Source: Escherichia coli | GTDB taxonomy: Bacteria > Pseudomonadota > Gammaproteobacteria > Enterobacterales > Enterobacteriaceae | NCBI RefSeq assembly: GCF_003334785.1 | Contig: NZ_QOWV01000002.1 | DNA length: 64,000 nt | Strand: one strand, 5' to 3' | Shown: positions 7,728-8,765 of the stretch, in pieces | Layout of the letters: each line of letters begins with the position of its first letter | Numbering within the stretch: the stretch's first letter is position 1 | Translations under genes and position numbers: made by a program | Notes under the pieces: generated by a model | Seen by the model: the letters and a program-made list of their open reading frames with translations, nothing else | What the model was told of the DNA's origin: nothing | Databases searched by the model: none

Positions 7728-8765
7728 ATGAACGATGAAATGAAAGGTAAAAGCGGCAAGGTCAAAGTGATGTATGTCCGCAGTGATGATGATTCTGATA
7801 AACGTACCCACAACCCGCGTACCGGGAAAGGGGGCGGGCGTCCAGGAAAATCTCGTGCTGACGGTGGCCGTCGCCCCGCCCGCGATGACAAACAGAGTCA
7901 GCCCCGTGACCGCAAGTGGGAAGATTCGCCGTGGCGCACGGTTTCCCGCGCGCCGGGTGATGAGACGCCGGAAAAGGCCGATCACGGTGGCATCAGTGGT
8001 AAAAGTTTTATTGATCCGGAAGTGTTGCGTCGTCAGCGTGCGGAAGAAACCCGCGTCTACGGCGAAAATGCATGTCAGGCACTTTTCCAGAGCCGTCCGG
8101 AAGCGATTGTTCGCGCCTGGTTTATCCAGAGTGTAACGCCGCGTTTTAAAGAAGCTTTGCGCTGGATGGCAGCAAACCGCAAAGCGTACCATGTGGTGGA
8201 TGAAGCGGAATTGACAAAAGCGTCAGGCACGGAACATCACGGCGGCGTTTGCTTCTTGATCAAAAAGCGTAACGGTACAACCGTGCAGCAGTGGGTAAGC
8301 CAGGCAGGCGCGCAGGATTGCGTTCTGGCACTGGAAAACGAATCTAACCCGCATAACCTGGGTGGCATGATGCGCAGCTGCGCGCACTTCGGCGTGAAAG
8401 GTGTCGTGGTGCAGGATGCGGCACTGCTGGAGTCGGGGGCGGCTATCCGTACCGCAGAAGGCGGCGCAGAGCACGTTCAGCCGATTACTGGCGACAACAT
8501 TGTTAACGTGCTGGATGATTTCCGTCAGGCAGGTTACACCGTAGTGACCACTTCCAGCGAGCAGGGTAAACCGCTGTTCAAAACTAGTCTGCCAGCGAAA
8601 ATGGTACTGGTGCTGGGTCAGGAATATGAAGGGTTACCGGATGCCGCACGCGATCCGAACGATCTGCGCGTGAAGATTGACGGTACGGGCAACGTTGCCG
8701 GGCTGAATATCTCTGTCGCAACCGGCGTTTTGCTTGGTGAATGGTGGCGTCAGAATAAAGCCTGA
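7728..8765 (+). CDS. yfiF: SpoU/TrmH-family RNA 2'-O-methyltransferase with basic N-terminal extension
   Basis: 345 aa from [11 protein letters not shown]...; C-terminal SpoU methylase region; Lys/Arg/Gly-rich N-terminus. Track start at 7653 is an over-extension. Confidence 0.88.

Follow-up and report, generated by a model that had tools for sequence, protein, structure and literature searches.

A net-basic, predicted disordered N-terminal tail with three conserved motifs precedes the RlmB-like core of the SpoU-family protein YfiF

The window, a 64,000-nucleotide stretch of Escherichia coli DNA, carries the gene yfiF on the plus strand (7728..8765; 345 codons plus stop), whose translation is that of a SpoU/TrmH-family RNA methyltransferase and RlmB paralog. 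RefSeq annotates the gene at identical coordinates under the product name "tRNA/rRNA methyltransferase", which is also the NCBI model name. A first-pass annotation, made from the letters of this DNA, had named the gene as SpoU-family YfiF, and on this the translation, RefSeq, Pfam, and the NCBIfam model NF008117 agree. Of 5426 complete E. coli genomes, every one carries the yfiF stretch. The neighbours of the gene are the divergent trxC and the convergent ung, beyond which lie tapT/patZ and grcA, and this gene order is identical on Salmonella, Klebsiella, and Cronobacter contigs.

YfiF begins with a predicted disordered N-terminal tail (residues 1-96; 7728..8015, plus strand), delimited by AlphaFold2 (AF2) modelling and composition. 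Pfam gave no match within residues 1-109, and the tail matched no PDB chain, even at E = 10. A conserved junction (residues 85-109; 7980..8054; majority-residue frequency 0.89), which includes a predicted helix at residues 97-106, leads into the folded core. The core consists of an L30e-like SpoU_sub_bind domain (residues 110-181; 8055..8270; PF08032, E = 1.2e-14; pLDDT ~98) and a SPOUT (SpoU_methylase) catalytic domain (residues 199-336; 8322..8735; PF00588, E = 1.6e-31; also matched by structure), all on the plus strand. The first-pass annotation had placed the tail at 7728-8030, corresponding to codons 1-101, and had a compact SpoU catalytic domain follow it directly; this part needs correction, as the L30e-like domain intervenes.

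A Shine-Dalgarno sequence, GGAG (7718..7721, plus strand), can be read 6 nt before the ATG at 7728. Across the best 80 orthologous Enterobacterales loci (one per species) GGTGGAG is conserved, and ATG stands at the aligned start in 78 of the 80. In a DNA alignment of four genera, Klebsiella has a 1-nt indel directly upstream of the ATG, Cronobacter has an in-frame 6-nt insertion just past it, and codons 3-11 differ by synonymous third-position changes. By the Nei-Gojobori method, dN/dS is 0.05-0.15 in residues 1-96 versus 0.05-0.10 in residues 97-345. The model NF008117 scores YfiF at 667.6 bits (cut-off 267), with residues 1-345 aligned to profile positions 1-344, and the tail alone (residues 1-109) still scores 145.8 bits. 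Judged by these comparisons, it is well supported that the tail is translated from ATG 7728 and is under purifying selection. The first-pass annotation had allowed that the true start might lie downstream of the basic region. A misannotated start, with the basic region untranslated and the true start at Met15, further downstream, or at the upstream in-frame TTG 7653, is barely credible: a few database entries do begin at Met15 (331 aa: P0037, P0038, and P0113) and the mechanical open reading frame does reach upstream to TTG 7653, but the Shine-Dalgarno spacing fits ATG 7728, residues 6-18 are invariant while codons 3-11 vary synonymously, indels are out of frame upstream of the ATG and in frame downstream of it, the curated model covers the full length, a Met15 start would still leave about 80 tail residues, and the antisense reading frame at 7590-8192 is unconserved. 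A start-codon artefact was thus rejected on the Shine-Dalgarno sequence, conservation, indel pattern, dN/dS, and the 78 of 80 aligned ATG codons.

The antisense frame just mentioned (200 aa; 7590-8192, minus strand) was also rejected as a real gene. Over 78 species its open stretch varies from 75 to 446 aa around a median of 125 aa; being unconserved, it is read as a shadow open reading frame of Arg/Gly/Asp-rich coding sequence. In a separate observation, codons 1-52 (7728-7883) have a dS of 0.45-0.90, versus 1.1-1.9 in residues 97-345, in the three pairwise comparisons in which E. coli takes part, which hints at an mRNA-level constraint at the 5' end of the gene.

Upstream of the coding sequence, alignments revealed a conserved yfiF leader (7686..7727, plus strand) with the palindrome CTGCGCG-CTT-CGCGCAG (7694-7710). 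The leader is single-copy per genome, nearly invariant in the four genera and largely so in the best 80 Enterobacterales loci, and its conservation exceeds that of much of the coding tail. Within it, GGTAATCT and the GC-rich palindrome are nearly invariant just upstream of the Shine-Dalgarno sequence; the Salmonella palindrome has an uncompensated G-to-T change in its 5' arm. As a known RNA element the leader was rejected, with no Rfam match and folding no better than that of shuffled sequence (z = +0.46). It could be an autoregulatory or transcription-factor site, autoregulation being considered because YfiF has been reported to crosslink to its own mRNA (PMC11066096). Farther upstream, the trxC-yfiF intergenic region contains a perfect 8-nt inverted repeat (TAATATGT/ACATATTA, 1 nt between the arms, 7576-7592), which may be an operator for divergent promoters.

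The tail is dominated by charged residues. Depending on whether it is counted to residue 96 or 101, it holds about 24-27 Lys/Arg and 18-20 Asp/Glu, with a pI of 9.8-9.9, a GRAVY of about -1.65 to -1.7, and a net charge of +6 or +7, which is modest because of the acidic residues also present. It is thus a net-basic polyampholyte. Residues 31-51 have the highest net charge in YfiF, +6 over 21 residues. Residues 1-101 include 13 Gly, 9 Ser, and 8 Pro, and 73% of them are disorder-promoting, versus 44% in residues 110-345. Among the 42 long open reading frames of the window, the YfiF tail is the most hydrophilic 100-aa stretch (minimum GRAVY -1.82); the next minimum is -1.33 and the median -0.62. 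The first-pass annotation had described about 100 low-complexity residues rich in Lys, Arg, Gly, and Asp. The string it quoted is present exactly, as residues 6-70, and the charged, basic, hydrophilic character stands, while the tail ends nearer residue 96 and glycine is only slightly enriched, at 13% versus 10% elsewhere in YfiF.

The second most hydrophilic 100-aa stretch of the window (GRAVY -1.33) starts at residue 334, in the C-terminal part, of a 444-aa open reading frame at 12026-13360 on the minus strand. By position and size this is probably the DEAD-box helicase SrmB, and the equivalent position in Klebsiella holds a 443-residue DEAD/Helicase_C gene. If it is SrmB, the window would encode a second RNA enzyme that has a charged tail.

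The first-pass annotation had proposed disorder prediction as a check, and the AF2 model, built with 81 homologs, gave the expected outcome: residues 1-96 have a pLDDT of 46-55 and no secondary structure, the first helix (97-106) rises in pLDDT from 70 to 89, and both domains exceed 90. Residues 1-96 are therefore predicted to be intrinsically disordered. The islands described below were not docked on the folded core in the monomer model and showed no confident motif structure. A dimer modelled with a Gly/Ser linker, which was poor (only 10 sequences, mean pLDDT 62), gave the tail a pLDDT of 24-29 and likewise showed no island docking on the core.

Majority-residue frequencies, taken from one locus per species over the best 80 loci, all Enterobacterales, divide the tail into three islands and a variable spacer. 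Island 1, KVKVMYVR (residues 11-18; 7758..7781, plus strand), alternates basic and hydrophobic residues in a strand-like manner and has a majority frequency of 1.00. Island 2, NPRTGKGGG (residues 29-37; 7812..7838, plus strand; 0.93), is followed by an RGG-like basic stretch at residues 38-52. A hypervariable charged spacer (residues 53-66; 7884..7925, plus strand; 0.40, dN/dS ~0.85) separates this from island 3, SPWRTVSRAP (residues 67-76; 7926..7955, plus strand; 0.97), which contains an invariant Pro-Trp. In the same loci the L30e-like domain (110-181) reaches 0.94 and the SPOUT domain (199-336) 0.83, so that by this measure the three islands match or exceed the catalytic core in conservation. 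Outside the spacer the tail has a dN/dS of 0.006-0.19, as low as in the folded domains or lower, with 0.006-0.04 over residues 67-96, whereas the RD/RE-repeat spacer appears nearly neutral. NPRTG and SPW stand 17 to 78 residues apart. The Klebsiella spacer (positions 1678-1721 of the locus L003) contains an in-frame 15-bp tandem repeat in 2.9 copies encoding DDRKR, a repeat that accounts for the longer spacers of Klebsiella and Enterobacter; no DNA tandem repeats were found in the E. coli yfiF tail. On this conservation pattern the tail is not uniformly low-complexity, and the term used for it in the first-pass annotation fits only a part of it.

A family search over 1.84 billion cluster representatives extended the comparison beyond E. 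coli. Each of the 148 scored best matches is closer to YfiF than to E. coli RlmB, by a factor of about two. Tails were counted in the 126 nearest 50%-identity representatives whose core is near-complete; in 66 of them the N-terminal tail measures 40 aa or more, the longest about 360 aa, and 62 of these 66 tails are net positive, with a median GRAVY of -1.70. Basic tails persist in the clade diverged to 35% identity. About half of the clade representatives have a short tail or none, which indicates that the core can function without it. Some of the very long Arg/Pro/Gly-rich metagenomic tails may be over-extended gene calls. The tails are unalignable across the family apart from recurring motifs. 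KV.VMYVR is kept in relatives at 41-56% identity (P0126, P0128, and P0130), and [ST]PW occurs 12 times in 69 divergent tails against 0.7 expected, mostly 22-55 residues before the folded domain; E. coli W69 lies 36 residues before it. YfiF-like members outside Enterobacterales include Zophobihabitans (Orbales), Pseudoalteromonas, Corallincola, and a gammaproteobacterial MAG, a range that rests on these few named cluster members, the best 80 of the locus scan being all Enterobacterales; they agree with the gammaproteobacterial distribution stated in 2007.

Four YfiF-like proteins, P0157 (Zophobihabitans entericus, Orbales), P0164, P0175, and P0229, keep the strand-like KPTVFY and SPW in the tail and have lost SPOUT motif 2, where FQQ stands in place of LGQEYEG and 3 residues are deleted. 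The alignment suggests a non-catalytic variant that has retained the tail. In Citrobacter amalonaticus AUH_CA_2023_1 (L036, match 1501-2536), the yfiF frame is interrupted after 64 codons and the matched stretch does not amount to a whole number of codons, reflecting either a sequencing error or a pseudogene.

In its folded part, YfiF resembles an RlmB-like methyltransferase. Foldseek pairs its SPOUT fold with those of RlmB and other SpoU enzymes at a probability of 1.00. The family was assessed on motif 1 (Asn/Arg), motif 2 (GxExxG), and motif 3 (LN.S); the 2'-O-methyltransferase residues N207, R216, E299, N327, and S329 are invariant in 18 Enterobacteriaceae, and among 81 relatives N207 and N327 are invariant and R216 is at least 90% conserved. 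By sequence and modelled fold YfiF belongs to the RlmB-like SpoU group (COG0566B), as a putative 2'-O-methyltransferase. YfiF falls below the cut-offs of both RlmB equivalog models, TIGR00186 and NF008386 (117.8 < 160.15 and 92 < 366, respectively), and is therefore a paralog rather than RlmB itself.

The tail has been known since 2007, when YfiF and its orthologs were reported to have a "positively charged, presumably disordered" extension (Tkaczuk et al. 2007). The same study described YfiF as a gammaproteobacterial duplicate of RlmB in which all 2'-O-methyltransferase residues are kept. Since basic disordered extensions are common on RNA enzymes and this one had already been described, our finding is confirmatory rather than surprising; what is added to the published description is a map of the constrained motifs and firm support for the start codon.

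RNA binding by YfiF in vivo was reported in 2024 by an OOPS/iCLIP study, which still called the protein a putative rRNA/tRNA methyltransferase (PMC11066096). Its iCLIP targets included rRNA, tRNA, csrB/C, arrS, chiX, and its own mRNA, and peaks in Dataset EV5 lie over 23S, 16S, 5S, many tRNAs, tmRNA, and sRNAs (PMC11066096). The sequence motif was weak (STREME score 0.23) (PMC11066096), and this, with the scattered peaks, fits low-specificity binding. The bait was arabinose-induced tagged YfiF (PMC11066096), so the broad binding may partly reflect abundant RNAs. RNA binding differed between exponential and stationary phase; Rne, Rnr, RluC, and PhoL were reported as physical interactors; and deletion of yfiF slowed growth most among the newly found RNA-binding proteins tested (PMC11066096). 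The study contains no analysis or truncation of the tail. Co-purification of YfiF with ribosomal proteins and rRNA-modifying enzymes had been reported earlier (Sergiev et al. 2012, PMC3384335), and a 2026 crosslinking/SEC-MS study found YfiF enriched with RNase E (PMC13106914). A methylation substrate is not reported in the searchable literature, in line with the first-pass annotation, which had called the substrate unassigned; YfiF is one of the last E. coli SPOUT methyltransferase-like proteins without one. The iCLIP motif AACCTTTACW has one exact copy in the E. coli rrn operon, in 23S at about nt 2064-2073 by RefSeq annotation (L085 2515-2524), and none in 16S. This site was not accepted as a target because of the low STREME score and the peaks across many RNAs.

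How the tail may act can be framed by Trm10, whose N-terminus binds tRNA alone and which was adopted here as the mechanistic model. The first-pass annotation had remarked that tails of this kind often mediate binding to RNA or ribosomes, and for YfiF such a role is plausible. The best-supported explanation, which we consider an even call, is that the tail is an RNA tether with specific docking motifs, placed ahead of the RlmB-like two-domain core. The Arg/Lys/Gly-rich stretches and the variable RD/RE spacer would provide long-range, low-specificity electrostatic capture of structured RNA, which could be rRNA in ribosomal or pre-ribosomal particles, tRNA, or sRNAs; the three conserved short motifs would then fold upon binding and contact specific sites, and the catalytic core would gain affinity and residence time on its target. 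Both the share of the tail in YfiF RNA binding and the contacts made by the motifs are what we infer, and the L30e-like domain alone could account for RNA binding by YfiF. The modest net charge and the short or absent tails of about half of the clade representatives also count against the tether. So does the conservation pattern: conservation peaks in the short motifs, which resemble specific docking sites, perhaps for a protein, rather than a generic RNA-binding arm, and the very high conservation favours some specific partner, be it RNA or protein.

It is possible, although rather unlikely, that the tail serves chiefly to dock a protein or to localise YfiF and that RNA contact is left to the L30e-like and SPOUT domains. 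Candidate partners would be a ribosomal protein, RNase E or the degradosome, a DEAD-box helicase, or a pseudouridine synthase; in a variant of this explanation, YfiF would partition into RNase E-type condensates by way of its charged spacer. Island conservation above that of the catalytic domain (1.00, 0.93, and 0.97 versus 0.83) is typical of short linear interaction motifs, and the free spacer length of 17 to 78 residues in the best 80 loci is in keeping with docking. The same can be said of the reported interactors (PMC11066096), of the enrichment with RNase E (PMC13106914), and of RhlE, whose disordered regions are described as setting functional specificity (PMC11260450). However, co-purification may be RNA-bridged, and a basic RGG-like composition is just as characteristic of RNA-binding regions. 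Docking of a protein also overlaps with the tether explanation rather than excluding it.

Slightly more doubtful is a combination in which the tail consists of specific docking motifs on a free-length spacer that anchor YfiF to a partner protein or at one particular position on a pre-50S or dormant ribosome, and YfiF is primarily a ribosome assembly or dormancy factor. Methyl transfer would then be secondary or dispensable. As far as we know, all 2'-O-methyl sites mapped in the rRNA and tRNA of E. coli already have another enzyme assigned to them. Such anchoring fits this complete assignment, and it fits the Orbales homologs that keep the tail motifs and lose SPOUT motif 2.

A regulatory tail, acting as an autoinhibitory arm over the RNA-binding surface or active site, or as a degradation or turnover signal across growth phases, is unlikely. 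A mixed-charge tail could fold back onto the basic RNA-binding surface, and disordered termini are common protease entry sites. [quoted passage not shown] Against this, the tail is undocked on the core in both the AF2 monomer and the poor linked-dimer model, by which autoinhibitory fold-back is weakly disfavoured, the terminus is not degron-like in any known way, and the searched literature holds no pointer to proteolysis. It is very unlikely that the tail is neutral low-complexity sequence from repeat slippage that is merely tolerated: the spacer, with its dN/dS of ~0.85 and its length shifts by in-frame repeats such as the 15-bp repeat of Klebsiella, has this character, but purifying selection outside the spacer (dN/dS 0.006-0.19), islands near-invariant across the best 80 Enterobacterales loci, and basic tails persisting down to 35% identity in the clade appear to refute it largely for the tail as a whole and leave it plausible for the spacer alone.

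Mutants in the constrained residues 11-18, 29-37, and 67-76, with W69 as the obvious single target, could serve to separate RNA tethering, partner docking, and catalysis, and could assist in finding the substrate.

Among known proteins, RlmB (YjfH; the 23S rRNA Gm2251 2'-O-methyltransferase; PDB 1GZ0) is the best sequence and fold match to YfiF and has the two-domain core in common with it. RlmB differs in having a known target and no N-terminal tail, the alignment beginning at YfiF residue 108. Bacterial RhlE-type helicases resemble YfiF in that they are RNA-metabolism enzymes with basic Arg/Gly-rich disordered extensions, which tune RNA binding and RNase E association. In these helicases the extension is C-terminal and shares no sequence similarity with the YfiF tail. 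The RhlE extensions have been described as defining functional specificity, and disordered regions of RNA helicases at large as allowing phase separation and complex interactions (PMC11260450).

The tRNA m1G9 methyltransferase Trm10, also a SPOUT enzyme, has a flexible basic N-terminal extension ahead of its SPOUT domain, as YfiF does. The Trm10 extension alone binds tRNA with a Kd of 0.86 uM and contributes to activity (PMC3874184). Unlike YfiF, Trm10 belongs to a different SPOUT clade, is a monomer, and methylates a base; its extension has been described as poorly conserved, whereas the YfiF tail has near-invariant islands.

MRM1/Pet56, MRM3 (RNMTL1), and the SpoU-type 'MRM' of T. brucei fall into the COG0566 group, like YfiF. 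The basic N-terminus of eukaryotic MRM proteins is at least partly a mitochondrial import signal, a role inapplicable in E. coli. The mitochondrial COG0566 proteins are like YfiF in having positively charged N-terminal extensions, and for Mrm1p a role independent of methylation has been described (Tkaczuk et al. 2007). Structures matched to YfiF by Foldseek include proteins bound to large-subunit assembly intermediates (7OI6, 9HCD, and 6YXY), MRM3 dimers among them, and the 'MRM' of the T. brucei mitoribosome is inactive, with a closed active site, and acts structurally. The MRM3 dimers and the inactive trypanosomal SpoU protein are thus precedents for SPOUT proteins with a structural role in ribosome assembly.
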